The notes under the pieces: generated by a model | What the model saw: the letters and a program-made list of their open reading frames with translations, nothing else | The model's database searches: none | What the model was told of the DNA's origin: nothing | Part shown: positions 892 through 55,315 of the stretch, piece by piece | How positions within the stretch are numbered: position 1 is the first letter of the stretch | How the letters are laid out: each line of letters opens with the position of its first letter | DNA from: a virus | Lineage: Duplodnaviria > Caudoviricetes | Strand: one strand, 5' to 3' | DNA length: 64,000 bases | Virus record (IMG/VR): IMGVR_UViG_3300031760_000001 | Location: 160,001-224,000 of that record | Made by a program: the position numbers and the translations under genes

Positions 892-1296
892 ATGGCACAG
901 TATTTTTCTATAAATAGAGGCTCCGAACTACCGAAATTGCGTGTAGAACTTATTCAGGACGGTAAAACCGACTTCCGTAAATTCTATCTTGCAATTCAGG
1001 CAGCTGACTCTGTATCCTTTACTATGACAAACCTTGAAACTGGTATCAAAAAGATTGCCAAGGCACCAGCTGAGGTTGTCTATGATGAAAATTCTGGTTG
1101 TGAGGAAAGGTATCTTCTCCAATACACTTGGAAAAAGAGGGATACAAATGAAAGTGGTACCTTTATAGGTCATTTCCATATCAATTTCAATGACCAGGTT
1201 GTCGCTGACGGTATGGTTTTCCCAAAGGGTGAATTGATTGTGCCGATTGAAGAAGATATTGTAATAATCGTGAAAGACTCTTGTATAAAAAAATGA
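892..1296 (+). CDS. Small virion protein, BppU N-terminal/Ig-like domain
   Basis: Pattern FSINRGSELPKLRVEL...LQYTWKKRDTNESGTFIGHFHINF...VFP resembles BppU_N-type domains. Confidence 0.5.
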   Translation: MAQYFSINRGSELPKLRVELIQDGKTDFRKFYLAIQAADSVSFTMTNLETGIKKIAKAPAEVVYDENSGCEERYLLQYTWKKRDTNESGTFIGHFHINFNDQVVADGMVFPKGELIVPIEEDIVIIVKDSCIKK

Positions 1297-3623
1297 ACAT
1301 AAATGAGGTTATAAATAAAATTGTTAGAAAGTTGTTAAACGAAACATATTTTAACACCGATTCTGTATCAGGACCGTATAAAGCTAACCGTACTATACAG
1401 TTGTTACATGACTATATAAATTCATTTCCACCACGTACAAGCAATTTTGTCATACCATATGTAAATTTAAATCCTAAACAGAAAAATATTTTAGCTTTAA
1501 TTGCTGAATGTAATGGAACTACACTTCAAAAAGTTCTTGATACTGTATATTACAGATATGCAAAAGTTAAAACAACAAAAGACATTGCCATTGTTCCAGA
1601 TGATTTTCTAGGTGAATTCTTAACAGCTGACACAAGGGAAAATGTTTATGTGACACAAGGCGAAAGAGACTCAGAAGCACAATTTGGTATGGCTTTAGTT
1701 GTTGGCAAATATTTAAACGATTTCAGAAACAGAATTGATTATGTACATTTTATTAAATATCTTAGTAAAGCATTAATAAAGTCTTATATAACCTGTATTG
1801 AGTCGCAATTAAAAAACCGTGTTGACTCACCATTAAGAAGTGACTTGTTCTTACCTACTGCTGGTAATAGTGTGTCATATAATGATGCTTTTAAAAATCA
1901 AGAAGAAAATATTTTACAAACAATACTTAATGATAAAAATATACGTTTAAAACCACAGGAAAGAACTATATTGCAAGCCTTTATGGAAGTTTGTGGTTCT
2001 AGTTTAAGTCCTGAAAACCTGGAAGCTTTGGCTGATTACCATGATACCAGAATAGCTAAAGGCAGCGATGGCAAATACGCTAAAGAAACCCAAGTGATAT
2101 ACAAAGAAATATCTGAAAGAACTGGAGTACCTCCTATTACTGTTGCAAAAGTGTTAAGTGGTATAATTAGCCAACTTAAAAAAAGTAAATATTCTAATTA
2201 TAACTGGAATTCTAATTTAAACATAGTTTCACCAAATGCACAACAGCCAGAACAAATTACCAACAACGTTCCTACTACACAACCAAAACAGGCTACTAAT
2301 AGAGTACCTAATCCACAGCAGACTTTCACACAAAAAATAACAAAAGCTGCTCCAGTTCAACAGCAGCCAACACAAAAACTAAGACCTAAAAAGAAACCAA
2401 ATAATTATACTATTAGTGGTGCCACACCAACCGATAATTATACCACTATGACTGAATCGAATAATAAAATCCAAAATAAAAACAAAATGAGAAAAAAAAT
2501 ACAATTAACCGAAAGTGTATTGAAACAAATGATTATCCGTGCAATTAACGAATCATTATATGAAGTAGGTAAACCAGTAAGCGCTTGGGAAAGCATTAAA
2601 AATTGGGCTTTTGCTGTTAGAAATGGAGCAGACCCAATTCATTGTAAGGAATTTAATGATTTTTATAAAATAATTATTGAAAACCCTTATTGTGAAAACG
2701 CTGTAAAAATGGGGTTTGCTTATGAAAGTAAAAATCAGAGTACTGTTGGTGGTAATACAACACTGAATATTGATAAAATGTTTGCAGTAACACCAAAAAT
2801 CGCTAGCGATGTTCTTACTGATTTTCTTACTGGCGAGAACTGCGTGGTAACAGATTTTCATACGAAAGATGGTGAAACTGTTGCTACAAAACCAGACTCA
2901 TTCGTCGGTGATAATGTGATTAAATGTGCAAAAGCTGCATTAAATGGTGAGACAAGCGACTTTTTCAATGTTCTTTGCAAACAACTTAGAACTTACGGTG
3001 CCCACTATTGTAGAAAACATTATGGCGAATTGTCAATGCAATGGGGTCTGGGTGCACAACAAATCGGTGGTGATAAATCAAATGCACTTGAAGATGAAGA
3101 AGATAGTGATTACACGGAAGATTTCAATGAACCAGGAAAAGATATTGAAATAGACGCTGGCAACAAGGTTGAAAGAGACCCATATTCAGGCGAAGAAGTT
3201 GACGACTCAAACGTTGGTTTTGATAAAGCGGCTGATGTAACTTCAGTTAAAAATGACTATGACGCACGTATGGTCAGACAACTTAGAAAAATCATTAACG
3301 ACCCACAAACCACTTTAGCACCACAAGAGAAAAAGGTTTTAAAGGCTATAATCTATATCAAATCACATGGCGTTAGTGACGACAGACTTGAGAAAATGCA
3401 AGGTGCATCTGAAACCCAGCAAAGACTAATATTATACGACCAAGTGGGAGAAATGCTTGGAATGCCTGTTATTAATGTCCAAAGAAGTATTTCATCTGCT
3501 ATTAGTAAAGCTAGACAAAGTAAACTAGCTAAAATGAATAATGTTGATGAACAAAGAAAGCAAAAACTCAATCAACTTATCAATGAGGTAATCAGAAAAG
3601 TTATGAAAAAATATTTAGGATAA
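1293..3623 (+). CDS. Tagged polyprotein with two tandem sigma-factor-like (region 2 / region 4 HTH) units
   Basis: ATG at 1293 overlaps the upstream stop (ATGA). Two homologous halves end in LxPQExxIL...YxEIxExxGxPxxxVxxxxSxxISxxK sigma-r4-like helices. Tag motifs occur at the N-terminus, the middle and the C-terminus. Confidence 0.55.
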   Translation: MNINEVINKIVRKLLNETYFNTDSVSGPYKANRTIQLLHDYINSFPPRTSNFVIPYVNLNPKQKNILALIAECNGTTLQKVLDTVYYRYAKVKTTKDIAIVPDDFLGEFLTADTRENVYVTQGERDSEAQFGMALVVGKYLNDFRNRIDYVHFIKYLSKALIKSYITCIESQLKNRVDSPLRSDLFLPTAGNSVSYNDAFKNQEENILQTILNDKNIRLKPQERTILQAFMEVCGSSLSPENLEALADYHDTRIAKGSDGKYAKETQVIYKEISERTGVPPITVAKVLSGIISQLKKSKYSNYNWNSNLNIVSPNAQQPEQITNNVPTTQPKQATNRVPNPQQTFTQKITKAAPVQQQPTQKLRPKKKPNNYTISGATPTDNYTTMTESNNKIQNKNKMRKKIQLTESVLKQMIIRAINESLYEVGKPVSAWESIKNWAFAVRNGADPIHCKEFNDFYKIIIENPYCENAVKMGFAYESKNQSTVGGNTTLNIDKMFAVTPKIASDVLTDFLTGENCVVTDFHTKDGETVATKPDSFVGDNVIKCAKAALNGETSDFFNVLCKQLRTYGAHYCRKHYGELSMQWGLGAQQIGGDKSNALEDEEDSDYTEDFNEPGKDIEIDAGNKVERDPYSGEEVDDSNVGFDKAADVTSVKNDYDARMVRQLRKIINDPQTTLAPQEKKVLKAIIYIKSHGVSDDRLEKMQGASETQQRLILYDQVGEMLGMPVINVQRSISSAISKARQSKLAKMNNVDEQRKQKLNQLINEVIRKVMKKYLG

Positions 3624-3648: not shown

Positions 3649-3678
3649 AAACGGGACTTTTTTAGTTCCGTTTTTTTT
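3649..3678 (+). terminator. Rho-independent terminator
   Basis: aaacgggact-ttttt-agttccgttt hairpin followed by a T tract, downstream of the 1293-3623 gene. Confidence 0.75.
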
Positions 3679-3782
3679 ATCCATTTCAATAAAATTTGTA
3701 TATTTATAATTAAGAAATTCATATATGATGTCTATTCAATAGACTTAACTATATGTTATAATTAATTAAAATATAACTTATT

Positions 3783-6700
3783 ATGTCAGAATTAAAAAGA
3801 GCTAAAAAAGCCTCTAACGAGGAGGTTGATGCCTTTTTGAAAGGCTCAGACCCACAGGAACATATCATTAAAATCGAGTGTGGGTACGACGATTCCAAAG
3901 CCACGGTTATATGGCGTGACGAAAATTTCCAAAAACATTATTCTTTACAAAATTTTTATCCTTTCTGTTGGGCAAAACAGGAGGCTGGCAGACTTATGTT
4001 CGGTGGTGACCGAACCAAACTGAAACTGGAAATGGTTAACAGGGGTATAAGCTGCAAGGGTCTGACTGTTGCTAATGAAAACGGCGAAGTTCCTGAACGA
4101 ATGGCAAACGGATACCGTGTCCTGTTTTATGCAACAAGACCGATGTCCAATAAGGAGTTCAGTAAGTTTTTCGATGATGCAAAAGTTCCTCTCAAACCGA
4201 AAGAGCGTGACAAAACTTACGGTAAAAATTTATATAAAACCTGTGCGCCTAATGAACAGTTTATGATTGCAACAGGCAAACGTTTGTTCAAAGGATATGA
4301 GTCATATGATGATTTGCTGCGTATGCAATTCGATATTGAGACCACTGGTCTTGATAAAAAACACGATTTGATTGACCAGATTGGTGTCCGCACAAACAAG
4401 GGTTTTGAAAAAATTATACAGGTTGATGGTGACACTGTTGATGAAAAACTTGAAAACGGTAGAAAAGCCATTAACGAAATGTTTGATGATATTGACGAGA
4501 TTGACCCAGATGTTATAGCTGGATATAACAGTGAGGATTTCGATTTCGAGTTTTACGATGTCTTCCTAAGAGAACATTTTGGTGTGGAAATGGTAGATGA
4601 AACCAAACGCAGGACGCTTAAAAACGGTTGCTATAAAAAGAAACAACAATCTGTCCTTAAACTTGGTGGTGAAATGGAATATTATTATCCAACCGTTATC
4701 TGGGGTAAACATATTACTGACTGTCTATTTTCAGTTAGACGTGCACAAGCGCTTGACTCAAATATGAAAAAGGCTACCCTTAAATATGTGACCAAGTATT
4801 CAAAAATCAATAAGAAAAACCGTGTATACGTACCTGGTAAGATAATTACAGAGACATGGAATATTACAGAACCAGTATTTGCTTTTAATAATAATAACGG
4901 CGATTGGTATCGTGTAACAGAAAATCACCCACTGAAAGATGGATATGAAATGCAAACTGGTCGTTATATTGTGCAACGTTATTTGCTTGATGATATCTGG
5001 GAAACTGACAAGGTTGAATTACGTTACAATGAATCTAACTTCCTTGTGGGTAAAATGCTTCCAGTCAATTTTGAGCGTATGTGTACAATGGGTACCGCCA
5101 CTATCTGGAAGTATATTATGATGGCTTGGTCTTATGAACATGATTTGGCAATTCCATTAGAGACCAGTTCACGCTCATTCACTGGCGGTCTTTCGCGTTT
5201 GTTGACTGTCGGTTATATTCCAAACGTACAGAAACTTGACTATAACTCACTTTATCCGTCAATTATTCTTTCATTTGGTATTAAGTCGCCTATTGACATT
5301 TCTGGTGCTATGCCAGCTATGTTGGAATATATTCTTACCCAACGTGAGTATTTCAAGGGTTTGAAGGGTGATTACGGTAAACAGGCTAAGAAATATGGTA
5401 AACAATATGATGAAGAAGTTGAACAGCTTCGTCAGATTGAGGAATATATGGGGTTGGATGATAATGCCTTTGCTGTTGCAATTGCAAACAATGACCATTT
5501 AAGATTACTTAAAGAAAAACAGGAAGAAGCTTCAGCCCTTTCAACCAGGAATGACAAAATGCAGTTGCCTCTTAAGATTACTGGTAACGCTTATTTCGGT
5601 TCATTCGGTTCTGGTGGTGGCGTGTTTCCATGGTCTGATATTGACTGTGCTGAGGAAACCACTTGCTGTGGTCGTCAAATGCTTAGACTTATGTTGAAGT
5701 GGTTCACTGATTTAGGTTATCAGGGTATTGTTTGTGATACGGATGGTATGAACTTCAAACAACCTCCACAATTCAGATATACAGAGGAAAATCCGTATAT
5801 ATCCCCAGGTCTTAACCGTAATACCAAGAAAGGCGAGAAATATGTTGGTCCTTGGGCTGATTTGGCTGAGTTTAATGACTTGTTCATGCGTGTTAAGAAC
5901 GGTCTTGACATTGATGAGTTTGTTCCGTCATCCTGTTACTTGGCACGTAAAAATTATATGGACTTGCTTGATGTTGAAAAACAGACGGTGAAATTGGTTG
6001 GTAATACAATCAAGTCAAAGAAAATGCCAATCTATATTGAGAAATTCGTTGATGATGTTGTACGTGACCTTTTGAACGACCGTGGATATGAATATTTGGA
6101 AAAATATTATAATAAGATTGAAGAAATTTACAATCTGCGTATTCCTTTGAAGGACATTGCCACTGTTGGTAAAATCAAAACCAGTATCGAGGATTATAAA
6201 AAGAACTGTAACGAAAGAACTAAATCTGGCTCCAAGAAAGCTAGACAGGCTTGGTACGAGTTGGCAATCAAACACGGTCTTGATGTTCATATGGGTGATT
6301 CCATCTATTATATCAACACTGGTACCAAGAAGGGTGATTCAGATGTGAAACGTGTGACACATTATTATGAAATGATTAACGGAGTTAAAACCGATGTCAC
6401 CAAAAAATATGAAAAAGAGTGGAACGCACTTAAAAAACAGACTAAACTTGGTGATGCTGAAGCTCGTGCAAAGGTGTGGGATGAAACGGGTTCAAAACCC
6501 AAAGCGTTGAACCTTGAAAATTTCATCAAACGAAATTATCCAGATGTTTGGGATGAGGACGAAATTATCTTCAACTGTGTAATGCTTCCAAACAGTGTTG
6601 TTGAGGATGAAGAGGACCATTTCTGTGACGATGATTTTGAATACAATGTTGCAAAATACATTGAAATGTTCAACAACCGAATCAAACCGCACCTCGTCTG

Positions 6701-27110: not shown

Positions 27111-27917
27111 ATGGCTGACGAAACCGAAATTAAGGATTTAACCACAACAGGTGTCGAAGAGGCACCTGTTGTTGAATCTTTACCGAAAAAGAGGGGAAGA
27201 AAACCAAACCCCAATAAAAAGAATATGTATTTCTCAGAATATGAGGAAGACATATTCAAACAGTATTTAAACAGTGAGGATGAGGGATTCAGGAACAAAG
27301 TGTTCAATGAGGTTCTTTATCCAGTGTTCACCAAAATGGTTGAGTCTATTATACGCAGGTATATACTGTTTACACCTGGTGAGGATTTCCAGGATACTTT
27401 CAATGATGCAATGTCACACTTAATATCCAAAGTAAAGCATTTCAAGCCCGAAAAAAACAAGAAAGCGTTCTCATATTGCGGTACAATCTGTAAAAACTAC
27501 GCTTTACATAAGAGACAGAAAACACAAGACAAACTCCAAAAATATGTTTCATATGATGTGGTGTACAACGACATACACCCAGATATGAGGACAACTAATG
27601 ACCCAATGTTCGGTGATGTCAATTTCACTCAGTCAATTATGATTCGTTCAGCGGAGGAAATTAAAAAAATGGTAGATGATTCCAGTAGGTATAATTTGAA
27701 TGACTCGGATATAAAGGTTGGAATGGCTTTGGTTAATCTGCTTACCAATTGGGATGAAATATTTATGAATCTTGAATCCAAGAAATATAATAAAAGTGAG
27801 GTGGATTCCTTTATTAAAGAGACCACATTACTTTCAACCAAACAAATCAGGGATGCCAAGAAAAAATTTTCCAATGTATACTTTAAACTTAAAGAGCAAA
27901 TGTTAAATGAGGACTAA
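27111..27917 (+). CDS. gp55-like phage late sigma factor
   Basis: MYFSE...KMVESIIRRY...DAMSHLISKVKHFKPEKNKKAFSYCGTICKNY resembles region 2 of gp55-family sigma factors (F.PEK...AF.Y...I..). Confidence 0.7.
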   Translation: MADETEIKDLTTTGVEEAPVVESLPKKRGRKPNPNKKNMYFSEYEEDIFKQYLNSEDEGFRNKVFNEVLYPVFTKMVESIIRRYILFTPGEDFQDTFNDAMSHLISKVKHFKPEKNKKAFSYCGTICKNYALHKRQKTQDKLQKYVSYDVVYNDIHPDMRTTNDPMFGDVNFTQSIMIRSAEEIKKMVDDSSRYNLNDSDIKVGMALVNLLTNWDEIFMNLESKKYNKSEVDSFIKETTLLSTKQIRDAKKKFSNVYFKLKEQMLNED

Positions 27918-35923: not shown

Positions 35924-36559
35924 TTAATATCCAAATGAAGCTTTAATTAGTGAGTCAATTGTTGTATTTCCGTGATATATTTCCTGTCCATTAACATCAC
36001 GAGCTCTAAAATCTATATTCTTACCAGTCCCTTTAAGATATGGTTCAATGATAACATCCCTATCACGGTCTAATACCATACCCAGTCTTGAAATAGAATA
36101 CCTTTGAGCAATTAATTTCCTTACTTCATCGGTAATTTTCATATTATTTTTATTGCCAACAAATATAAGTGGGACAAATTCATCTTCTGGATGTTGTTCT
36201 TGATATTCAGCTAATGGTATTTCATTTCGATTTCTTCTTCCTCCACCAATTCCATTGTTTACCCGTGTAACCTCAAATGTTCTTGGGTTGATTTTAACAC
36301 CTTTTGGTAAATTTCTGGTATAGATTACATGCCCGAAATTATCAACTTCCAAGGCTCGTGGGTCAATGATGCCATCGCGAATTGGCTGTGCAAGTTTTTG
36401 TTTGACAAATTTTAACGACATTTCTTTACTATTTCCAAATTTGCCAAAATCAACACCTTCATTTATATAATTTTTGATACCTTCATTAAGGTATGTTTTT
36501 ATACTCGTTTCAATAATTTTTTCAAGTATGGTTTCATTTAATTTTATTATTTTCTTCAT
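35924..36559 (-). CDS. Tagged hypothetical protein
   Basis: N-terminus MKKIIKLNETILEKIIETSIKTYLNEGIKNYINE. Confidence 0.65.
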   Translation of the reverse strand: MKKIIKLNETILEKIIETSIKTYLNEGIKNYINEGVDFGKFGNSKEMSLKFVKQKLAQPIRDGIIDPRALEVDNFGHVIYTRNLPKGVKINPRTFEVTRVNNGIGGGRRNRNEIPLAEYQEQHPEDEFVPLIFVGNKNNMKITDEVRKLIAQRYSISRLGMVLDRDRDVIIEPYLKGTGKNIDFRARDVNGQEIYHGNTTIDSLIKASFGY

Positions 36560-37078: not shown

Positions 37079-37585
37079 TTATTCACCTTCAGGTTTTAAA
37101 CCAACGTATTTCCAACTATCGCCATCGTTTAATTCAAATGACATGTATACAGGTTGCCCATTCATATGACTGTAAGGTTCACCACATTGAAAATAATTCC
37201 TGGTGTATGTTTTCGGTGGGACAGCACTAGCTAATTCTTCAACAACTTCATTTGATACCAACGTACCTGGTTTCAAATTGTCCAAGTTTTTATCATATTG
37301 CCAATTTGACATATTATAAACGCCATCACCCTCATATGGGGTCGGCTCCACTTCATCATTATATGGTTGTGAGTATCCATTAGCTTCAGCCCACTCAACT
37401 AAATCTTTGTTTCCGAGCCAATTCATTAATTGTAAAGCAATTTCTTTCCATCCTTTCCATGAAACATCTTGTGATTCAAAATATTCCATAATATCCTCAG
37501 CCTCCCTTTCCTCCATTTCATATGAAATGGCTTCCATAATCATATTTTTTAGGGTGGACTCGTTAATTTTAATTACTTTTGCCAT
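37079..37585 (-). CDS. Tagged hypothetical protein
   Basis: N-terminus MAKVIKINESTLKNMIMEAISYE. Confidence 0.65.
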   Translation of the reverse strand: MAKVIKINESTLKNMIMEAISYEMEEREAEDIMEYFESQDVSWKGWKEIALQLMNWLGNKDLVEWAEANGYSQPYNDEVEPTPYEGDGVYNMSNWQYDKNLDNLKPGTLVSNEVVEELASAVPPKTYTRNYFQCGEPYSHMNGQPVYMSFELNDGDSWKYVGLKPEGE

Positions 37586-38109: not shown

Positions 38110-38916
38110 ATGAAAAAAACTATATTTTTAACCGAATCGGATTTAAAACATCTTATATCGGAGTGTGTCTTGGAATACTGTACACATAACAGGGTTGAAG
38201 AAGGGAAAACAGGCAATATATTAACCGCATTAGGTCTTGTTGCTGGCGGGATAACTGGATTGGGATATACAGATACACCGAATACAAAGCAACAGCAAAT
38301 TATCCCACCACAGACGATGTACCAAATGGATAAAAGCCCAAAAAACAATGACTCAACTATCAACTATTACGATTACGTAAAAAACCAAATAACGAATCGT
38401 TTCAAACAAACCGACAACAATCCGAAACAAGAAAAACCTCAAATACAAAGAGAATATTATCCAAGCGACAATGTGATTAATTTCATAAAGTCGTATGAAT
38501 CATTCCATGAAGGATGGATTGACGACGGAGATGGTAATTTGACAACAGGGTGGGGTTTCAAAATGACCCCAGAACTTAAAAAAAGATTCCCTACAGGAAT
38601 GCACCGTGATAAAAACGGCAACACACCAGAAGCAGATGCTTACTTGAAGGAATATATAAATAATAATCTTGGATTGTTTAAAAAATATACACCAAACCTT
38701 GATAAACTTCCGCAAGAATATGCTGATGCTTTGTTTGATGTATATTACAATGTTGGCCCAAATGTATACAAAAACAGTCCAAATCTACAACATGCGTTGA
38801 AAAATGTAGATTTGCCACAAATTGCAAACAACCTTAAATACGGAAAACTAAAAGGACACAAAAAACGTAGTGCAGACAGAAAAAACATGTTGAAAGGAAA
38901 TTATAAACGTAGTTAA
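38110..38916 (+). CDS. GH24 (T4-type) lysozyme with N-terminal tag and hydrophobic segment
   Basis: Catalytic triad E-x8-D-x5-T in KSYESFHEGWIDDGDGNLTTGWG, and DALFDVYYNVG. N-terminus MKKTIFLTESDLKHLISECVLE. Confidence 0.8.
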   Translation: MKKTIFLTESDLKHLISECVLEYCTHNRVEEGKTGNILTALGLVAGGITGLGYTDTPNTKQQQIIPPQTMYQMDKSPKNNDSTINYYDYVKNQITNRFKQTDNNPKQEKPQIQREYYPSDNVINFIKSYESFHEGWIDDGDGNLTTGWGFKMTPELKKRFPTGMHRDKNGNTPEADAYLKEYINNNLGLFKKYTPNLDKLPQEYADALFDVYYNVGPNVYKNSPNLQHALKNVDLPQIANNLKYGKLKGHKKRSADRKNMLKGNYKRS

Positions 38917-39300: not shown

Positions 39301-41364
39301 TTATCTCATCTCGTTGATGTCCCAGTGCATCAAACCATCGCACTTGATAGCACCATAATATCTGTTGTTAACGAGTTTCTTCGCATAACGTGTGCAGATA
39401 CCCTTGATAGGAGCAAAGTTGAATGGGTTGTACATGGTTGGGGTAAGTGCCATAGGAACGTATGGAGCGTAGATGTAACCAGTGTCAAGCAAGCTTGTAC
39501 CGTGGTGACCCATAATCAATGACCAGTGTGGAGCATATGGGTCAACAGTTACGTTGTAACGGCCCTGGAGAGCACCGATTTTCTCAATACCCATGTTGTA
39601 AGTGTCGCTTTCTGCGCTAGCGTCAGTTACGTGGAAGTATTCGAGGTCGTTCAAAACAGCGCTGATTTCAGCTGAAACGATAATCCAGTTTGCACCACCA
39701 CGAAGGGTTGATTTCTGAATCTGAGCACTGATTTGGTTAATCTTAGTCATAATTGTCTGGTTCCAGTCTTTCTGTGTGTAAACAGTTGAAGTGGTACCAA
39801 GTCTCTGCCAACCGTTGTAGTCCCAACGAGCAGTCCAAGGAGCGCTCTTACGGATGTCACGGAGGATTTCGCGGTCGATTTCAGCAGCAATCTGCTCTGA
39901 AAGGATAGCGGTCAATTCAGCCTCTGCGTCAAGGTTGTGGAATGCGCTAACGTCCTGAGCAAGTTCTGGTGACCAGGTTGCACGGAGTTTACGTTCCTCA
40001 ACAGCAACGTCAACTGAAGTAAGCTGGAAGCTGACCTCACCCATTTCAGTTTCAAGCTCAAGGCTGTCATATGAACACCAAGCAATCTTGAAGAAACCAT
40101 CAATTGGGTCAGTAAGTTTGGTAAGGTCTGCCAATGCAGGTGACTGTGGGTCAATACCAATGTAACCGTCAAGACTCAAACCTTGTTTTGTAGCAGGTTT
40201 AGTGAGGTCAAGTTCGATGTACATGTTACCGTTAGCGTCAGCAACTTCCTGTTGATTCCAGTTTACGAGCTGGTCGCCGTATTTCTGGGTAACAACGCGG
40301 AACTGAATACTTTCATTAGCTGCGAAAGTTGAGAAGTCACCAGTTGTTTTGGTGATAGGTTGTGAAGCAATAACTTTCAATGAAGCCAAGAAAGCCTCGG
40401 TGTCCATTTCATTGCCGTCAGGACCAGTAAGGTGACCTGCATTGTATGAATGGAAACCACTAAGTTCAACTAAAAGTGAACGGACTGAACCATCCTGTGC
40501 ATAAACTGGAATGGTGCTGATTTTCTGATATGAACCGTCTGGGGCAATCTGAACAGGAACTGCTGTACCCATGCAGATAGTGATTTTACCCTTTGAATTG
40601 TCATACAAGAAATCGTTGTAGAAGAGGTCATAAAGGGTCTTCTTCATGTACTGAGTAACGATTGGCTCAACAACACCTTTACCAATAAGCTCTAAAGTCT
40701 TACCAGTTGTGTCATAAGTGTTCTTACTACCGTCAGGTCTTACTGATGGTTTGTTGATTTCATAGTAATCAGTACCATCTGTCCAAACGCGAACACCGTC
40801 TTCTTTAACGAAGTATTGTTCAACTTTAGTGATACCTTCACCCTGAACTGTTACACTCTCATCTGGGAGGTAGTAACGGTTATTCTGGGCACCGCCATTA
40901 CCAATCATGTTGTGCTTAGCGTCATATGAATAAGCGTTACGGTCAGTTCTTTCATAACCCATAAGACCACGATGACGACCAGTGTCACCAGCAGTAAGCT
41001 GACCTGGAGTCTGGAAGTTCCATTCGCGCTCTGAAGTAACAGGTTTAATGTAGAACAACTTACCGATAGGAAGGTTCATAGCCTGAACTGAAACGATGTC
41101 GTTAGCAAGGAGCTTGCTGAATACACGACGGATAAGTGGGAAAACAACAGTTTCAAATGAACCACTGTTGTCAGAAGCGGTAGCTTCTCTCAAAAGGTGT
41201 TTAGCCTGGTTCTCATAAAGGGTAGCAACAGTCTCTTTAATGTTGCCTTCAAGACCCTTGACCAATCCAAGGCGGTCCCAACGTGCCTGGATGTCTTCTC
41301 TGATTTTTTTCTGTGCGTTGAGCTCAATGTTGCCAACTGCACCTGATGTGAGTAATTCTCTCAT
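39301..41364 (-). CDS. gp23: Major capsid protein, T4 gp23-like
   Basis: PLIRRVF..LLANDIVSVQAMNLPIG, RKLRATWSPELAQD..AFH.LDAEAEL..ILSEQI..EIDREI and YAPYVPM...F.P..G..TRYA; strongly biased codon use. Confidence 0.95.
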   Translation of the reverse strand: MRELLTSGAVGNIELNAQKKIREDIQARWDRLGLVKGLEGNIKETVATLYENQAKHLLREATASDNSGSFETVVFPLIRRVFSKLLANDIVSVQAMNLPIGKLFYIKPVTSEREWNFQTPGQLTAGDTGRHRGLMGYERTDRNAYSYDAKHNMIGNGGAQNNRYYLPDESVTVQGEGITKVEQYFVKEDGVRVWTDGTDYYEINKPSVRPDGSKNTYDTTGKTLELIGKGVVEPIVTQYMKKTLYDLFYNDFLYDNSKGKITICMGTAVPVQIAPDGSYQKISTIPVYAQDGSVRSLLVELSGFHSYNAGHLTGPDGNEMDTEAFLASLKVIASQPITKTTGDFSTFAANESIQFRVVTQKYGDQLVNWNQQEVADANGNMYIELDLTKPATKQGLSLDGYIGIDPQSPALADLTKLTDPIDGFFKIAWCSYDSLELETEMGEVSFQLTSVDVAVEERKLRATWSPELAQDVSAFHNLDAEAELTAILSEQIAAEIDREILRDIRKSAPWTARWDYNGWQRLGTTSTVYTQKDWNQTIMTKINQISAQIQKSTLRGGANWIIVSAEISAVLNDLEYFHVTDASAESDTYNMGIEKIGALQGRYNVTVDPYAPHWSLIMGHHGTSLLDTGYIYAPYVPMALTPTMYNPFNFAPIKGICTRYAKKLVNNRYYGAIKCDGLMHWDINEMR

Positions 41365-41396
41365 AATATTATTTCCTTTTTTTATTCGTTATAATT

Positions 41397-41404
41397 TATA
41401 AATA
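41397..41404 (-). promoter_or_regulatory. TATTTATA putative late-promoter element (major capsid gene)
   Basis: 32 nt upstream of the MCP start on the coding strand. Confidence 0.65.
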
Positions 41405-41425
41405 TTACCTGTTTGCAAAAAGTTA

Positions 41426-43114
41426 TTATTTGCCAAGTCTCATAAGTCTTTCGTTGAGGTCAAGGATTTTGTTCAAGTCCTCTGACTGGTTGAGCATATT
41501 AGTCTCGACAATCATATTCTTGTTCTGACCTTTGGCTTCTGACAACTGTTTGTCAAGCAAGTTGCTGTTGTTAACTTTGTGTGCGCTTTTCAGCTCGGTT
41601 GAAATCTGGCTGTAAAGGTTCTTGCACTCGTTAAGCGATTGTACTTTGTTAAAGCGATTCAAGATATTAATCTTTTCCTCTCTTGATGTAGCGTTTTCGG
41701 TTATAAGCTTGATGACTTTTGCTAAACTTGCGTTGATAAGGACAGCTTCGTTAAGCTGCTGCTTAATCTGGGCTGCGATATCTTTCAGTTCTTTGTTTTC
41801 GGCAAGTACAGCGCTAGCCTGTCTTTCGATAGCCGCAATTCTGTTCTTGTTTTCGTCAACTTCTTTGTAGCCATCGCCAGTACCTCTAAATTTGCTTGGC
41901 TCTTCGGCATTGTGGTGACCGTTTCTGATTTGACCACGGTCAGTATCATTACCTCTTTGTTTACGGGTAACACCACGACCGAAACCACCATGTCTGCCAC
42001 TTGTGCTGCTAGCAGCTTCATCAACTGGCATGTCAGGTGTGTTAGGCATATTCATCTCAACCTCGAAAATGGTTTCTTCGTTGCACTCATTGTTGCACTC
42101 ATTGTTACCACATTCGTCAGTGTTTTCACTCATAGGTTGTTTGGTTTTCTGTGAATATGGGTTACCGCCATTCTGACCATCGTGTCCTACCCAGCGTTTC
42201 TTGTTGTTAGCACCGCCTTTAGGAGCACCGTCGTCGAAACGGCTGTCGCCTTCACCTTCGCCTTTATCGGTTGGCATAGTCATCGCTGATTTGTTCTGAT
42301 AATTGTCAGTATAACCTAAATTAACATTACCTTCATTTACCATGTCGTCATTTTGTGTTTCGTCATTATCATCGCCAAGTTCGAGTTCGAATGTCGTTTC
42401 ACCGTCCTCGCCCTGGTTGTCACTTTCGATATTTCCCAAATCAATGTCATCCATCATACCTTCGCCACCCTCAGTGCCTTCTGGACTCATACCATCGTCA
42501 CCGTCAATAGCGTTGCCTTCTGGATTCATATCATTTTCGAAATCGTTTGGCTCGGCATTGTCGCCGTCATCGGTTATATCAATGACAAATTCAGTGTCAC
42601 CGTCCTCGGTCTCAACTGTTGCAGTCTCGTCATCATTTTTGATGAAGCGAAGACCGTCACCAGGTTCCATATTCTGGATGACCTTCAAAACTGTCTTGAT
42701 ATCTTTTCCTCTCAGGTCGTATTCACCGTCACTGTCCATACAGTCAGAAATCTCGTCCCAAACATCACCACCTTCGGCATTGGCATCGCATTCGCCGCCT
42801 TCGCAAGCGTCAGCATTGTCGTTACCGCTTTCCAGGTCAACATTGACATCAGCGTTATCACCTTCTGGTGCAGCACCTTCGTCGTTGTTGTCATTTTCAG
42901 GCTCGGCATTGAACTCAGGCTGGTCGGTGTCAACCTCTTCTTCGTAAGAATCATTATCAGATTCAGCAAGCATTTGTCTCAAACTCCTGTTAACCTTCTC
43001 GTCAAGCAAAGAACTTAAAGACTCTTTTGTAGATTCCTCAAGTACCTTAGCCATAGCGTCTTTGTCAGCTACAAGACTTTTGATATACTTAGTTCTAATT
43101 TCTTTCTTAGCCAT
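41426..43114 (-). CDS. Prohead core/scaffold protein (gp22-like position)
   Basis: Very acidic disordered middle and C-terminal coiled coil; immediately upstream of the MCP; many [LIV]-x-E sites. Confidence 0.75.
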   Translation of the reverse strand: MAKKEIRTKYIKSLVADKDAMAKVLEESTKESLSSLLDEKVNRSLRQMLAESDNDSYEEEVDTDQPEFNAEPENDNNDEGAAPEGDNADVNVDLESGNDNADACEGGECDANAEGGDVWDEISDCMDSDGEYDLRGKDIKTVLKVIQNMEPGDGLRFIKNDDETATVETEDGDTEFVIDITDDGDNAEPNDFENDMNPEGNAIDGDDGMSPEGTEGGEGMMDDIDLGNIESDNQGEDGETTFELELGDDNDETQNDDMVNEGNVNLGYTDNYQNKSAMTMPTDKGEGEGDSRFDDGAPKGGANNKKRWVGHDGQNGGNPYSQKTKQPMSENTDECGNNECNNECNEETIFEVEMNMPNTPDMPVDEAASSTSGRHGGFGRGVTRKQRGNDTDRGQIRNGHHNAEEPSKFRGTGDGYKEVDENKNRIAAIERQASAVLAENKELKDIAAQIKQQLNEAVLINASLAKVIKLITENATSREEKINILNRFNKVQSLNECKNLYSQISTELKSAHKVNNSNLLDKQLSEAKGQNKNMIVETNMLNQSEDLNKILDLNERLMRLGK

Positions 43115-43144
43115 TTTTTATCAATATAAGATTATTATTTTAAT

Positions 43145-43152
43145 TATAAATA
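43145..43152 (-). promoter_or_regulatory. TATTTATA putative late-promoter element (scaffold gene)
   Basis: ACTATTTATA on the coding strand, 30 nt upstream of the start. Confidence 0.65.
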
Positions 43153-43250
43153 GTGTGTATTTTAAAAAATTATATCCAAATAGTATATTTTTATACGTTT
43201 GTGTAAAATATTTACAATGTTACTGGACATTTTAGCTAATTTAATATGTT

Positions 43251-46200
43251 CTATTCAAAGGTAAAAGTATCACTTGTTGTACCGACATCAACCCTCACAA
43301 CGTCACCACTACTGAAGTTTCTGGTAGTAAATACAGCTATGTGGTCTGTTACAGTAACTGTCTCTATAAATGTGTTGTTTACATATAATGATGCGGAATT
43401 TCCAGCGTTTGTGTAGCATTTAATCACCCTGTCTGTCATTCTTGTATAGTCTTTTCCACAAATATGAACAAACAACTGTGAACTCCACTCCGCTTTATAA
43501 ATATAGAAAGTGTCTTTTTTTGTTATATGGTCTCTTTCAACCAAACCTTTGTTGTTCAGTCTTCTCAATTCATCATCAGTCGATGTTGTCTCACCGTCAA
43601 GACAAACCGTGTATCCTTCATTTCTGCTGGAAACCGCAATATCAAACAACTGCCATTGTGATGTGAACAACAACTGTGGGAAATTCCTGATTGCAGTAAT
43701 ATGTCCCTCATGTAGCCACATCTGGTATTCAATATCATGACGTTCATAATTACCTTTTGTTGTGGTTGTCTGCGGGTCTTCCGAGTGGCAATTCTGTGTA
43801 CCTCCAGCGCCATATTCGGAAAAGGCTAGTGGTTTATGTAGATTGGTTATGATGTTTGCCACACGGGTGTTAAGCTGTGATGTTGGGTCGTTCGACGCTT
43901 TGTCGATATACCAGCCAACATATATGTTACAACCAAACCAATCCACGTTCGGGTTGTTGTAATATGAACTTGGGTTGTTGTAACTATGTGACATTACATA
44001 ACCAACAAGACGTTCTGTATCCAAAGATTTAATCAGTGTTGTATAATATTCAATCTTGGTTTTTGCAAAATCCTTGTCATCGGTTGTAGTCTCATTACTT
44101 AATCCCCAGAACATTATACAAGGGTGATTGAAGTGCTGGTTGACCATATCCGTATATTGTGTTTCAAGGTGTGTGTAATAGTCAGTAGGCATTGTTGACT
44201 GCAGTTTGTTTACACAAGGGGCTTCCGTCTGGACAATAATGCCGAGTTGGTCACACCTATCATAAACCTCTTTCGGGTGTGGATAGTGGGCCAGACGCAA
44301 GAAATTACATCCAAGTTCCTGGATAATGGCAAACTCCTGTGTATAATCCGAATCAGTCAATGCGTTGGCTTTTCCAGCCAGGTCATCGTGCATACAGACA
44401 CCTCTTAGATAATAAGGGGAACCATTCAATAAGAATCCAGTGTACGACTGTCCCTGTATAACTGTTGTGTCATTGATTACATAGCTATAGTATCTTAAAC
44501 CATACGGCCTTGAATAACTGTGGTACAAATCATCATCCTTATATATTTCCATTGTAATGGTATAAAGGTGTGGGTCGGTTGTACCGTTCCAAAGGTGTGG
44601 ATTTGATATTGTGGCTGTGAATTTCTGTTCGAGGCCAGTACTATCATCTTCATCACTCCATGTATATGTGCCGTCTGTGATTGTGCATACAATAGTTGCA
44701 CCCACTGGCACGGTGGTTATCACGTTTATCGTCGCCGATGAAGATGTAACGGTTGAAGTGACATGGAAGCCGTCATAACCGTATTTCATATCAGGCAAAT
44801 ATGGACTTGTGAATAATTTCACATTGCCTAACGTTGCATTGAAGTTGAAGTCACCAGATGCTGGAGCCAAATAGTTTCCTTCATTGTTCTTCAAAGCCAC
44901 TTTAATATTGTTTGTCCCTCTGTGTACATAACTTGATATATCCACAAAGAATGCTGTATATCCACCCCAGTGTTTTTCAACCAGAGTGTTGTCCACATAT
45001 ACCGATGCTGACTGGTCTGCGTGTTGGAACCACAAATAAGCTGGATTTACATCGTGTAAATTGAAACTTGTCTCGAAATTAAACGTACCTTTAGCATAAC
45101 TGCCAGAATGGCCGTCAATCCTGTTTACGGAATAGGGGGCTGTTATTGTCTGGTTGTTGTATGTCCATGAGCTTAATGTCTTGTTTGATTTTTGATATGG
45201 AGTTTCTTCCACATATTCACAGTTCATCGACACAACTGGACTGGTCTGTGAATCCAGCTCTGAATAAGCTTCGACATATGTTGTGGCATTAATCAAAATC
45301 GGGTCGGTATACAGAATATATCCACCAGTCTGGTTTAATTTGTAATATATACTGGCACCAGGAGTGTCACAGTCTATACTAATCTCTTCACCATCAAATG
45401 AAATTTCTGGTGTTAATAACAAAATATTATCATACACAGCCCAGTTTGTTGGAATACCACTCTGACTCCTTGCCCAGGTTACATTTTCGGCTTTGACAAA
45501 ATTACCTGAAGATGCAACATTCTGAGTCCAATTGGAACAATTGCTCGTAGATACCCCAGAAGTTGCCATACATTTAATATAATTAAGATTACTACAACCA
45601 ATAAACATGGCATAATAAGCTTGACTTGGTATTGTTGTTGCAAGAAGGTCTGGCGCTGTTGTAAATGCACACTCTTCAAACATATAGTAATAACAACCTG
45701 TAGACAATGTTGTTGCAGGTAACGCTGGCGGCGTATCCAATAACGTTGCTTTACTGAACATTGCACGATAACAGTAGTTAGTCAATGTTGTAGCTGGCAA
45801 TATCAAATTTTCAGCTGAAATTACTTTCGATAATTTAAACATTGAACAGAAATTATATGTTCCTGTCAATATATTGTTTCCAATAAAGTTATCGCCATAT
45901 ACCATTGACATTATATTGCCTTCAACATCAAACTCAGCTGTACCTCCTTCAAATCCAGAGTAGTTACTCTTGTCTTTTGCATAAGAAGTATTTGTTCCTT
46001 TGAATCTGACAACATCACCGCTTGTGACATTTATAGTTGTAGGTGTGGATGTTGCAGTTATCTCAGTCCATGTTCCTCCGTTAACACTGTATTGAATTGT
46101 TTTGGCTTGACCTGAACCAATTGACTTCCAAGCAATTGTTCCATCACTTAATACTCTGAATGTTAAATAGTCACTACTGTAATCATGTGTTGGTTCATAT

Positions 46201-49088
46201 TCACATGTTTCGGTGACTGTCTGGCTTGTCTGGTTTCTGTAAGTTGAATAAGCCTCAACAACAGTGTCTTCTGTTATTGGTATTTGTTGTGTATATAATG
46301 AGAATTCACCAGTTTCATTAAGTCTGTAATAAATTTCAGACCTATTGGTAGCACAGGTTATTGTTACTAATTGTCCATCACATGTTATAACAGGGCTGGC
46401 CAATACTACTGGGACATACACACAGGTTTCTTTTACAACCTCACTGCTTCGTCCGTCGACTGTTGAATAAGCTTCAACAACAGTGGTTGCATATATATTT
46501 ATAGGATTTTCATATAATATATAACTACCAGTTTCATTTAATCTATAATAAATGTCAACACTAGGTGTTTCACAGTTTATGTAAACCATCTCACCATCAC
46601 AACTTATCGTCGGTTCCTCAATCTGGTCATCATATATACAAGTTTCCTTAACAATTTCACTGGTGTTGCTGTTAAGTGTTGAATAAGCCTCAACAACGGT
46701 ATCTGTGAAAATTTCTATCGGTGTTGTGTAAAGAGAATATGAACCATATTCATTAAGTCTGTAGTATATACTTGCACCAGCTGTCGGGCAGGTTATTGAA
46801 ACCTGCATACCGTCACAAGTGATGACTGGCTCATCCAATACCTTTGATAATTTCGTGATTGAGAATTCGGATACATTGATGTTCGAATAACGATAAGGGT
46901 CACCGTTTGCATCCAAAGCATGTCCAATACAAACTGTAAGATATTGAAGTTCAGGTAGGTCTGGAAACACCTTACTAGCTTGATATATGGTTGTATCATT
47001 AATCAAATCCTTTGCAACAAAATTATTGCTTGCAGCCGTTGGGTCATATATAATTTCAATGTCATATTCACCAACATTGGTAGAAATGTTTCTTGCGGGT
47101 AAAATGGTTGTATTTGTATTACTGCCAGTTGAAAACTGGGTACCCAATATAATGTTTTTGGTTGTGTTTGATTGCCTCAACTGGAAACCATACCAAGGTT
47201 CTGGTGTGGCACGTTTCATTGTAAGAATGTTGTGGTGGTTTTCATTCTGGTTTGGTGGTTGGTGGGCAAAATCAATTGTAAAATGAATGTGTGTCCTGAA
47301 TCCCTCCGTTACATCGAAACCATAGAATTCAGTGTTTACACCATCACCATTAAATGTTTTTTCACCACTGGTGCTGTCACTGGTGTCAATATCATAACCA
47401 GTCACGGTTGGGTCTCCATTCTCGTCATACTCAATATTCTGGATTGAATTGTTACCATCACTATCAACATTCTTGTTTGTGGTATCCGTAGGGTCACCGT
47501 CAGCGTTGTAGTTGGTTGTTGATGAAGTTGATGAGCCATCAGTGTTTTCTGTGGTTGTGTTTGTCTGTGTACCACTTACATCACCATTCTCGTCATAATT
47601 GGTTGTATTGGTATTTGAAGTCACAGAACCAGTCTCTGGGTCTGGAGCTGATGTGGTTGTTGTAGATTCACTTGAAGTACCGTCAATGTTGGTTGTTGTT
47701 GACGAACTTGATGATGAACCATCGGTGTTCGTGGTTGTCTCTGTTGTTGTCTGGCTGGTTGAACCATCTACGTTTGTTGTGGTTGACGTACTTTCAGTTG
47801 TTGTTACACCAGTGCTTGGGTCTGTTGTTTCTGTTGTGGTTGTCTCGGTTACAGAACCGTCTGGGTTGATAACAGTTTCCTGGGTTGTATTGGCTTGATA
47901 CACCACTTCAACATCCTTTGTTTTTGTTAACCCATTAAAAACAGCCTGGATTGTTATATTGCCAGATTGTAATATGGTAATTTCACCATGTTCATTAATA
48001 GTGGCATTTGAACCACCAGCTATGATGCTCCATGTCGGTACACACTCATTGTTATTATATGTGGCAACGCAAGTACCAGAAGTACCAGTAATTGTATCTG
48101 GACATGAAATCACAAGTTGGTTGTCATATGAAATTTCAATTGTTTTCTGGTCGGTGTATACATCATATGTCGCTTGAATGGTAATGTTCTGGCTCACAGT
48201 TCCAGGTGCAATATCAACACGTCCGTATTGAGTCAGTGTTGCATACTGACCACCATTCAACAGCACCCATTGTGCGTTAACTTGATTTCCGTCATATTTT
48301 GCTTGGAGATTGAAGTTCTTTCCAGTATATTCATCTGGACCGACAATTTGATAGTCATGTGCCACACTACCAGGATAACCAACTACCTTATACAACACTC
48401 TACCGTCCGTGTTGGCTGATGTTGTTGCTGTTCCATACAATGATGTTGTTCTAGTGAATATTATGCTTGTTTTATCACCAGACACAGCTGCTGTAACAGC
48501 TAATAACCTATTTCGATTGTTTGGATTTTGAAGTACGGCTGAACCAATGAAATGTCCGAACGGACTTTGGTTCATACCACTTAAATCTATGTTTATTACA
48601 CTTGATGCTGTTGTGTCGGAGCCAGTTCCACCAGAACGGATATACAGTTTCAGTTTTTGGTATTTTTCCAAATTCAAACCAGTAATCTGCCAACTTGGTG
48701 TTTGTGACATATCCGTTTCAGTTGCCAGTTTTCCGTCACTTACGGTCTGTGCTTGCCACACAACCTCTGGCTTGTCCTTTGACAATGTGTATATACATTT
48801 AGCCGATGGGTATTGGTCATGTGTTGAAGCCGAAGATAATGAAGTGACCTTGTTTATCAATTGTTCAAATGAACCCAAACTTATAGTTATTGTGCTGCTG
48901 TCTACTTTGGTCAATGTCAAAATGCCAGTCACTGGGTCCAATGAAGCGTCTTTTATGTCAGAGCTGAAACAGTCTCCGCCGACATATATGTTTCCAGTAT
49001 TGTTGTCGAACACAACAACACCGTCTACAGCGTCAGTCGCTGAGTTATAGTTTTTCTTTCTTAAAATGATTCTCTTATTTGATGGCAT
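43251..49088 (-). CDS. Giant modular fibre protein with C-terminal GH2 glycoside hydrolase
   Basis: N-terminal anchor, Ig-like repeats, Thr-rich stalk, FN3-associated repeats, BspA-like LRRs, then GH2 (HWGGYTAF, LRGVCMHDD, RLAHYPH, WGLSNE, FSEYG, NNKGLV). Confidence 0.85.
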   Translation of the reverse strand: MPSNKRIILRKKNYNSATDAVDGVVVFDNNTGNIYVGGDCFSSDIKDASLDPVTGILTLTKVDSSTITISLGSFEQLINKVTSLSSASTHDQYPSAKCIYTLSKDKPEVVWQAQTVSDGKLATETDMSQTPSWQITGLNLEKYQKLKLYIRSGGTGSDTTASSVINIDLSGMNQSPFGHFIGSAVLQNPNNRNRLLAVTAAVSGDKTSIIFTRTTSLYGTATTSANTDGRVLYKVVGYPGSVAHDYQIVGPDEYTGKNFNLQAKYDGNQVNAQWVLLNGGQYATLTQYGRVDIAPGTVSQNITIQATYDVYTDQKTIEISYDNQLVISCPDTITGTSGTCVATYNNNECVPTWSIIAGGSNATINEHGEITILQSGNITIQAVFNGLTKTKDVEVVYQANTTQETVINPDGSVTETTTTETTDPSTGVTTTESTSTTTNVDGSTSQTTTETTTNTDGSSSSSSTTTNIDGTSSESTTTTSAPDPETGSVTSNTNTTNYDENGDVSGTQTNTTTENTDGSSTSSTTNYNADGDPTDTTNKNVDSDGNNSIQNIEYDENGDPTVTGYDIDTSDSTSGEKTFNGDGVNTEFYGFDVTEGFRTHIHFTIDFAHQPPNQNENHHNILTMKRATPEPWYGFQLRQSNTTKNIILGTQFSTGSNTNTTILPARNISTNVGEYDIEIIYDPTAASNNFVAKDLINDTTIYQASKVFPDLPELQYLTVCIGHALDANGDPYRYSNINVSEFSITKLSKVLDEPVITCDGMQVSITCPTAGASIYYRLNEYGSYSLYTTPIEIFTDTVVEAYSTLNSNTSEIVKETCIYDDQIEEPTISCDGEMVYINCETPSVDIYYRLNETGSYILYENPINIYATTVVEAYSTVDGRSSEVVKETCVYVPVVLASPVITCDGQLVTITCATNRSEIYYRLNETGEFSLYTQQIPITEDTVVEAYSTYRNQTSQTVTETCEYEPTHDYSSDYLTFRVLSDGTIAWKSIGSGQAKTIQYSVNGGTWTEITATSTPTTINVTSGDVVRFKGTNTSYAKDKSNYSGFEGGTAEFDVEGNIMSMVYGDNFIGNNILTGTYNFCSMFKLSKVISAENLILPATTLTNYCYRAMFSKATLLDTPPALPATTLSTGCYYYMFEECAFTTAPDLLATTIPSQAYYAMFIGCSNLNYIKCMATSGVSTSNCSNWTQNVASSGNFVKAENVTWARSQSGIPTNWAVYDNILLLTPEISFDGEEISIDCDTPGASIYYKLNQTGGYILYTDPILINATTYVEAYSELDSQTSPVVSMNCEYVEETPYQKSNKTLSSWTYNNQTITAPYSVNRIDGHSGSYAKGTFNFETSFNLHDVNPAYLWFQHADQSASVYVDNTLVEKHWGGYTAFFVDISSYVHRGTNNIKVALKNNEGNYLAPASGDFNFNATLGNVKLFTSPYLPDMKYGYDGFHVTSTVTSSSATINVITTVPVGATIVCTITDGTYTWSDEDDSTGLEQKFTATISNPHLWNGTTDPHLYTITMEIYKDDDLYHSYSRPYGLRYYSYVINDTTVIQGQSYTGFLLNGSPYYLRGVCMHDDLAGKANALTDSDYTQEFAIIQELGCNFLRLAHYPHPKEVYDRCDQLGIIVQTEAPCVNKLQSTMPTDYYTHLETQYTDMVNQHFNHPCIMFWGLSNETTTDDKDFAKTKIEYYTTLIKSLDTERLVGYVMSHSYNNPSSYYNNPNVDWFGCNIYVGWYIDKASNDPTSQLNTRVANIITNLHKPLAFSEYGAGGTQNCHSEDPQTTTTKGNYERHDIEYQMWLHEGHITAIRNFPQLLFTSQWQLFDIAVSSRNEGYTVCLDGETTSTDDELRRLNNKGLVERDHITKKDTFYIYKAEWSSQLFVHICGKDYTRMTDRVIKCYTNAGNSASLYVNNTFIETVTVTDHIAVFTTRNFSSGDVVRVDVGTTSDTFTFE

Positions 49089-55287: not shown

Positions 55288-55307
55288 TTTAATAAAATAT
55301 TATATTA

Positions 55308-55315
55308 TATAAATA
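55308..55315 (-). promoter_or_regulatory. TATTTATA putative late-promoter element (portal gene)
   Basis: 20 nt upstream of the portal start on the coding strand. Confidence 0.65.

Follow-up and report, generated by a model that had tools for sequence, protein, structure and literature searches.

A tagged tandem sigma-like polyprotein in an uncultured giant phage, possibly carried in the virion

The open reading frame (ORF) described here occupies positions 1293-3623 of the plus strand in a 64,000-nucleotide (nt) stretch of phage DNA, called the window below, which corresponds to bases 160001-224000 of IMG/VR record IMGVR_UViG_3300031760_000001. It encodes a protein of 776 amino acids (aa), with its stop codon at 3621-3623. 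Our results, which include modelled folds, support the view that this ORF encodes two paralogous, highly diverged sigma-70-family-like modules (A and B) in one frame. By analogy with phage T4, we read the peptides at the two termini and the junction of the protein as copies of a terminal tag shared by several proteins of this phage, a putative counterpart of the T4 capsid-targeting propeptide. The whole of the reading that we favour, a tagged tandem sigma-like polyprotein that is loaded into the head, cut and injected, we put at slightly under an even chance. The parts of the protein, all on the plus strand, are as follows.

1293-1343: N-terminal tag, aa 1-17 (MNINEVINKIVRKLLNE), which ends in L-N-E17 and resembles the C-terminal tag
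1368-1841: predicted sigma-2-like domain of module A, aa ~26-183 (AlphaFold2 core confidence 81-92)
1884-2204: predicted sigma-4-like helix-turn-helix of module A, aa ~198-304 (VIA-align)
2205-2486: Q/P/T/N-rich linker, aa 305-398, of variable length across homologues
2448-2459: junction motif M-T-E388-S
2487-2552: internal ATG and full N-type tag, aa 399-420 (MRKKIQLTESVLKQMIIRAINE), with L-T-E407 and I-N-E420
2571-3047: predicted sigma-2-like domain of module B, aa ~427-585 (AlphaFold2 and VIA-align)
3057-3254: disordered, acidic stretch between the two domains of module B, aa 589-654 (32% D+E, isoelectric point (pI) 4.1, model confidence 30-37)
3252-3536: predicted sigma-4-like helix-turn-helix of module B, aa ~654-748 (VIA-align)
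3576-3623: C-terminal tag, aa 762-776 (LINE765-VIRKVMKKYLG), and stop codon; near-universal in the family

An earlier, sequence-only reading of this DNA had described two homologous halves, and their colinear homology was recovered by BLASTP, by profile-profile alignment and by a profile search of the genome. BLASTP of aa 1-396 against aa 399-776 gave E 1e-10 and 28% identity over 122 columns in the helix-turn-helix part, an alignment that spans the pairs ILNDKNIRLKPQER / IINDPQTTLAPQEK and IYKEISERTG / LYDQVGEMLG. The profiles of the first half (8 sequences) and the second half (19 sequences) were aligned by hhalign with a probability of 99.5% and E 3.2e-22 over 289 colinear columns; here DDFLGEFLTAD is paired with SDVLTDFLTGE, so that all three pairs proposed in that reading were found again, two by BLASTP and the third by hhalign. 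The second-half profile also matched the helix-turn-helix of the first half at E 4.6e-18 when it was run against the genome. The Gln/Pro/Thr linker that had been noticed between the halves is evident in the composition of aa 305-398, with 56% Q/P/T/N vs 25% in the whole protein. The frame across this A-rich linker is open in 8/8 full-length homologues, at identities down to 19-45%, and the junction motif hydrophobic-x-E-S-N-N is kept in 7-8 of the eight.

AlphaFold2 models of aa 1-310 and aa 399-776 had a mean predicted local distance difference test score (pLDDT, the confidence given in the list above) of 66, with domain cores at 80-92. They were compared by VIA-align with 48,161 chains, and the 50 best matches for each module were considered. 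Sigma-2 domains, sigma-4 domains or whole sigma factors accounted for most of the 50 matches of either module, and for 10 of the first 11 of module A. The first domain of module A matched sigmaE region 2 (Z 7.3, 100/106 residues, root-mean-square deviation 3.0), SigB (7.3), SigI6 (7.0), SigW (6.9) and chain 7d7d_F of the T4 gp45-dependent transcription activation (late-transcription) complex (6.9, 117/137), as well as ShbA, SigC, AlgU, sigmaA domain 2 and pro-sigmaK (8vjl_B). Its helix-turn-helix matched sigma-4 domains at Z 5-5.8 (SigF 5.8, SigH 5.8, SigD4 5.4, SigR region 4 5.2), and whole-chain matches to the module were sigma-32, HrdB, BldN and Thermus aquaticus sigmaA. Module B gave SigI6 (Z 6.4, 99 aligned), SigW (6.2) and sigmaE region 2 (6.1, 98/106), and at lower scores SigK (5.8) and SigC (5.2), for its first domain; for the second, sigma-4 matches lay at Z 5.6-6.5 (SigF 6.5, SigH 6.4, SigD4 6.4, sigma-28 6.1, SigR region 4 6.1, sigmaA domain 4 6.0), and SigB, WhiG, SigH and sigma-32 were matched over the whole chain. 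In SigC, 88/89 residues were covered by the sigma-like N-terminal domain. Foldseek searches with each half separately, a check that the sequence-only reading had suggested, ranked full-length sigma factors first for both halves at E 0.1-2.

With scores of 0.93-0.95, the ESM Atlas clusters nearest to both halves belong to viral families of Sigma70 regions 2 and 4, and the neighbours include clusters that are 100% Sigma70_r2. Pfam Sigma70 region 4 was matched weakly in each half (E 0.04 and 0.06; for Sigma70_r4 in module B, E 0.039), and Sigma70_r4_2 matched 7/8 full-length members with a best E of 2.8e-5, below the cut-off. The sigma region 4 pattern pointed out earlier is thus borne out by the fold and by recurrent region 4 matches, with the restriction that all of these stay below the Pfam cut-off. 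Module B has a near-invariant helix, Y-x-x-H-Y-x-R-x-x-Y (invariant columns Y170, Y174, R176 and Y179 of alignment A2), and in the present protein this helix, T-Y-G-A-H-Y-C-R-K-H-Y, resembles what we take to be the region 2.3 signature of primary sigma factors, T-Y-A-x-W-W-I-R-Q. The proposal of two divergent sigma-like factors in one frame is supported by the fold, the language-model neighbours and the sub-threshold region 4 matches. A sigma-like fold of both halves is in our judgement highly probable, and true sigma activity of the modules, as far as models can indicate it, appears somewhat better than an even prospect. A zinc site in module B was considered and rejected, as its cysteines are conserved among close homologues only.

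The tags that had been reported at both termini and at the junction were confirmed, and they resemble one another: all three fit one small hidden Markov model (HMM), with E 1e-8, 1e-8 and 5e-6. An HMM for which the internal tag and peptides similar to it served as seed (threshold E < 1e-3) found 15 copies in 14 genes of the genome, all with [ILV]-x-E at a fixed position. The consensus is M-(K/N)-(K/Q)-x-(I/V)-x-(L/I)-(T/N)-E-S-x-L-x-x-h-h-x-x-x-h-(L/I)-N-E, where h is hydrophobic, and the tag is modelled as an amphipathic helix. The copies begin at Met1 in all but two cases, the copy at 2487 and the second copy within positions 60102-60653 of the whole record. This last ORF (minus strand, 183 aa) carries an N-terminal tag and an internal one without Met, and forms a small two-module chain; the missing Met argues for cutting, beyond mere re-initiation. 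Carriers of the tag in the window include the following.

35924-36559 and 37079-37585: ORFs found by the tag HMM
38110-38916, plus strand: protein with a Phage_lysozyme domain (PF00959, E 1e-6)
50716-51069 and 51748-52146: ORFs between the protease and portal genes
55429-56061, plus strand: 210-aa protein between portal and terminase, with a C-tag-like end, VLKE-AVSRAIRNYLY

Judged by its sequence, the product of 38110-38916 may be a wall-degrading enzyme that travels in the virion, and not a plain endolysin. Nearly every member of the family of the sigma-like protein has a C-terminal tag of the form hydrophobic-hydrophobic-N-E followed by 8-13 residues to the end; the motif is shifted by a few residues in two members, and one has Q for N. 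An HMM of this C-tag gave no other significant C-terminal copy in the genome; on three ORFs, inspection by eye showed looser look-alikes.

The sigma-like protein of this phage (P0001) contains 13 hydrophobic-x-Glu sites, of which E17, E388, E407, E420, E753 and E765 are kept in at least 6/8 full-length homologues (LNE17, E407 and E420 in 8/8). These conserved sites all lie at module borders and none inside domains. The products that cuts there would give are aa 18-388 (~42 kDa, pI 9.2) and aa 421-765 (~39 kDa, pI 5.1). The T4 cleavage consensus is reportedly Leu/Ile-x-Glu. Head proteases of the T4 family cleave after Glu, and the T4 capsid-targeting sequences are N-terminal propeptides of 10-20 residues that bring unrelated proteins into the prohead core (PMC5694885). 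One T4 cargo, Alt, is injected and modifies the host RNA polymerase, and the protease gp21 removes its N- and C-terminal propeptides (PMC9026906); the same source gives a "cleavage logo" and the site LIE-9 for gp21.

The record has 244,784 bp (G+C ~36%) and an estimated completeness of 69% by CheckV, so the full phage genome should measure roughly 350 kb. Its source is an uncultured giant phage related to T4, with the following T4-type head genes in the window, all on the minus strand.

39301-41364: major head protein
49952-50698: gp21-type prohead protease (Pfam Peptidase_S77, E 3e-23, 82.7 bits, cut-off 27)
53236-55287: portal
56074-57966: large terminase

The terminase shares ~25% identity with its counterparts in T4-like, cyanobacterial and Flavobacterium phages and in one 484-kb uncultured phage. 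The protease ends in PLVNE-KINRINQILL, a sequence that is similar to the C-tag of the sigma-like protein and consistent with the C-terminal self-processing reported for related proteases. Directly downstream of the portal gene, a highly charged 311-aa ORF (52264-53199, minus strand) contains 19 [ILVM]-x-E sites as well as KVNEVVRKHE, a stretch similar to the tag; its product is a likely candidate for the scaffold or the core protein, on which the tags might dock.

No homologue of the beta or beta-prime subunits of RNA polymerase was found in the 245 kb record, which is estimated to be 69% complete. The record has three canonical sigma-70-family genes above the Pfam Sigma70_r2 cut-off, none of which carries the terminal tag.

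Window 27111-27917, plus strand
Whole record 42697-43596, minus strand
Whole record 70853-71533, minus strand

With three sigma genes and no beta or beta-prime homologue, this phage should depend on the host polymerase. The same pattern, as judged on the 245 kb record, is described for the "group 2" jumbo phages, which have no polymerase, phage sigma factors and a T4-like capsid (Iyer et al. 2021, PMC7824862).

The family of the sigma-like protein is small and is confined to uncultured phages of ~330-400 kb. Searches of 50,697 phage records by tblastn and megablast gave nothing significant; only four near-full-length relatives occur among 5.8 billion protein clusters, and a profile search of 1.84 billion representative proteins found 18 relatives. 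Eight proteins of the family have the fused form. At least nine clusters (P0006, P0008-P0010, P0012-P0015 and P0018; 337-425 aa) consist of the second half alone, and each starts exactly at the Met equivalent to 2487, with a tag there and the C-terminal tag at the other end. Most of these short forms are unlikely to be contig-end artefacts, given that the contigs on which they were called reach 326-402 kb. No stand-alone first half turned up, either among the 1.84 billion representatives or in a dedicated search of 30-425-aa proteins, which suggests that the first half is always made joined to module B. Fused and short forms coexist inside single 90% clusters (P0007/P0036/P0037 and P0014/P0033). 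Of these, P0033, from a Logan contig, has the ~33-residue leader of the fused form, then the junction SESNKNNKNKQNM and then the second half, and is thus a natural variant without the first sigma-like body. Scans of viral, genome and metagenome contigs for the DNA around stand-alone second halves recovered only L016, a 2.3 kb metagenome contig with a frameshifted fused homologue. Genomes with short forms may lack the first half or keep only a short leader, as in P0033. In our reading module B, which is a separately called gene in related phages of 330-400 kb, is the ancestral unit.

Start context was scored by a log-odds model that contrasts 245 called gene starts with the 1656 internal in-frame ATGs of this genome. 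With 11.1 bits, the ATG at 2487 ranks first of the 1656 internal ATGs and above 77% of the called gene starts, although part of this score reflects the MKK-type start of the tag because the model includes the first downstream codons. The surrounding region is A-rich and unstructured, and a similar A-rich leader is found in the 45%-identical homologue on L016. The A-rich initiation context that the sequence-only reading had noted at this ATG therefore holds, and stand-alone homologues begin at the same point. To go by the nucleotide context, module B is very probably still translatable by itself from 2487.

The ORF belongs to a two-gene operon with these further elements, all on the plus strand.

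849-856 and 879-887: two copies of the motif (C/A)TATTTAT(A), in the 72-nt divergent intergenic region before the operon
892-1296: upstream gene for a 134-aa protein, in translational coupling with the target through the overlap ATGA
3649-3683: terminator-like hairpin (3649-3673) and T-run, which closes the operon before the DNA polymerase gene

The stop codon of the upstream gene, TGA, shares bases with the ATG at 1293; on this ground, and because homologues begin with MNIN, TTG 1281 was rejected as the start. The 134-aa gene had no match in Pfam, PHROGs or PDB sequences, and its homologue likewise precedes the fused homologue on L016. Two classes of motif occur upstream of genes in this genome. 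Class 1, (C/A)TATTTATA, is placed 25-45 nt 5' of the start codon in many large genes and in those for the capsid, the portal, the terminase and the neighbours of the protease. Class 2, TTGTATAT(TA), precedes many small genes and one of the canonical sigma genes. The motif (C/A)TATTTAT(A) is enriched 17-30x in upstream regions, and the two classes are probably two promoter classes, as far as can be told from their sequences. Upstream of the operon's ATG, at distances of 43 and 13 nt, are copies of the motif ATATTTAT(A/T), which is of the head-gene type; the second copy ends 5 nt from the ATG. Further examples of upstream motifs are seen at window positions 41365-41410 and 55288-55320.

The mechanism that we propose has four steps. 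The tag would carry the protein into the prohead core, where the gp21-type protease would cut after the hydrophobic-x-Glu sites E17, E388, E407, E420 and E765. Two sigma-like proteins of ~42 and ~39 kDa would be set free, and both would exit the capsid with the DNA and bind the host RNA polymerase core as infection starts. Head loading is favoured by the presence of the tag on ORFs of the head module and on the lysozyme-domain protein, the gp21-type protease, the sites at module borders and the head-gene-type motif. Loading into the head and cutting, an analogy with T4, seem to us evenly balanced between true and false. For injection and early redirection of promoters the same analogy makes us rather doubtful, and we consider it somewhat unlikely that the full sequence of events, in which a protease-split, injected sigma pair reprograms the host polymerase before any phage gene expression, takes place. 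The idea that the tag is a phage-nucleus import signal was rejected on the grounds that the 245 kb record yielded no multisubunit polymerase and that its head genes are of T4 type.

Several results weigh against this proposal, some of them at the level of the fold. The models rest on alignments of only 8 and 12 sequences, the VIA-align scores are only Z 5-7.3, a range (Z <8) that in helical proteins may reflect a common arrangement, and the E values of the Foldseek ranking are weak. Neither half matched Pfam region 2, which is recognisable by fold only, and the region 4 cut-offs were missed (13.9 and 13.3 bits vs 24.1 and 25.7). The protein had only matches of E > 0.01 in PHROGs, and profile searches of PDB sequences with alignments A1 and A2 gave nothing significant. 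Alignment by hhalign of either half with the three canonical sigma factors of the phage was not significant (best P 0.027), so kinship to them at the sequence level lacks support. The modules could accordingly be generic helix-turn-helix DNA-binding proteins, either LuxR/GerE-like regulators or DNA-associated internal head proteins, which resemble sigma-2 by chance. LuxR/GerE-type proteins do score as high as sigma-4 on the C-terminal domain of module B (DesR 6.6, GerE, DegU, RcsB), and no sequence method reached a curated sigma threshold. This explanation leaves aside that the small sigma-2 structures are covered almost fully (sigmaE region 2 in both modules, SigC), that sigma-2 domains top the list from 48,161 chains, above unrelated bundles, and that the domain order, the whole-chain matches (SigB, sigma-32, SigH, WhiG) and the purely Sigma70_r2 neighbours fit a sigma factor. 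We regard it as improbable.

Other points bear on the packaging of the protein. Its gene adjoins the DNA polymerase gene, outside the head module. Among tagged genes that have their own upstream region, 6/9 carry the class 1 motif vs 46/126 overall (p = 0.058); the motif before the operon is suggestive only, because the intergenic region is very AT-rich, and the downstream DNA polymerase gene carries a hybrid of both classes. Hydrophobic-x-Glu is a low-information motif, and since the tags are what is conserved, its retention at the borders is in part a circular argument. Moreover, a phage that has three ordinary sigma genes may have no need of an injected one. The protein could then be a cytoplasmic transcription factor that is never packaged, such as a middle or late sigma like T4 gp55 or a pair of decoys that compete with host sigma, with its terminal helices as docking or oligomerisation peptides for a hub other than the prohead core. 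Besides the position of the gene, this agrees with the fact that phage sigma factors normally work inside the cell (PMC7824862; PMC12282133), with a reported interaction of T4 gp55 and terminase that is cited in PMC6669764, and with the modelled amphipathic helix of the tag, which could be an interaction motif. It fits less well with the three canonical sigma factors, which have no tag, with the same tag on a lysozyme-domain protein and on small ORFs among the portal, protease and capsid genes, and with the C-tag-like end of the protease itself; two complete modules in tandem would also be hard to fit on one polymerase unless they are cut or made separately. A never-packaged factor is a minority prospect in our estimate. 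Separate translation is a more serious possibility, if still short of an even one: two proteins would be made, with module B mainly from 2487, and the fused chain would be the by-product of a lost stop, without proteolysis. The first-ranked context of 2487, the A-rich leader kept in L016 at 45% identity, the nine or more clusters of second halves that start at that Met on contigs of up to 402 kb, and the fused and short forms within single 90% clusters all fit this explanation. A lost stop accounts less readily for a frame that is open across the A-rich linker in 8/8 full-length homologues, for the hydrophobic-x-E-S motif kept just 5' of the internal Met, or for a first half that never occurs alone. 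For module B, separate translation is compatible with the head-loading proposal, and it leaves cutting possible.

The modules share with two-domain sigma-70 factors (the extracytoplasmic function (ECF)/group 4 factors and T4 gp55) the order of a sigma-2-like domain, a linker and a sigma-4 helix-turn-helix, and the latter has the pattern L-x-P-Q-E-K...I-Y-x-E-I-x-x-x-x-G. They differ from these factors in an insertion of 20-35 residues within region 4, in the place of region 3, which is taken by a 66-residue acidic linker in module B and by nothing in module A, and in the arrangement of two complete tandem modules with terminal tags, for which no curated sigma model was reached.

As in the T4 cargo proteins IPI-III and Alt, a short N-terminal peptide that ends in hydrophobic-x-Glu is found on unrelated proteins, and a gp21-family protease is encoded; as in Alt, there are peptides at both termini, and the protein would act on the host RNA polymerase after injection (PMC9026906, PMC5694885). 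Unlike the T4 capsid-targeting sequence, this tag has ~22-26 residues, two Glu sites and an amphipathic helix, and its sequence is unrelated. It also occurs internally, where it splits a two-module chain, and the cargo would be a promoter-specificity factor and not an enzyme.

With the injected virion RNA polymerases of N4, phiKZ-like and crAss-like phages, the proposed system would share the entry of transcription specificity into the cell with the DNA, and the purpose of making early genes independent of host promoter recognition; it would differ from them in delivering the specificity subunit alone, for use with the core enzyme of the host. The pro-sigmaE and pro-sigmaK of Bacillus are likewise sigma factors with an N-terminal pro-peptide that is removed by a dedicated protease. 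Their proteases, SpoIIGA and SpoIVFB, are membrane proteins rather than a prohead serine protease, their pro-sequences are unrelated, and they involve neither tandem modules nor a capsid. In the polyvalent proteins of phages and conjugative elements, effector modules are also strung together and are thought to accompany the DNA into the recipient cell (Iyer et al. 2017, cited in PMC7824862); those proteins are much larger and have varied enzymatic domains, whereas here one transcription-factor module is duplicated, with protease-type joints. In the literature that we searched, we found neither a sigma factor described as delivered by the virion or injected nor a tandem sigma polyprotein.

Phages are known to take over transcription either by injecting a complete RNA polymerase or by expressing sigma factors or polymerase modifiers after entry. 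If our proposal is true, a capsid-delivered sigma would be a third route and a sigma-based counterpart to the virion RNA polymerases of N4, phiKZ-like and crAss-like phages, and it would explain how large phages that lack a polymerase could avoid dependence on promoter recognition by the host from the very start of infection. The natural variants with and without the first module, in which a tagged sigma-like gene was apparently duplicated in tandem and fused, offer a model for the evolution of cargo. Like the T4 capsid-targeting sequence, the portable tag could be put to use in loading phage heads with foreign proteins.

Two minor observations concern other parts of the record. An ORF of 1945 aa with no PHROG match (43251-49088, minus strand) lies between the protease/scaffold region and the capsid gene. 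No tRNA genes occur within the window; outside it, at ~3915-3940 of the whole record, GGTGGTTCGAGTCCACC is found 5' of a gene and resembles the 3' part of a tRNA gene.

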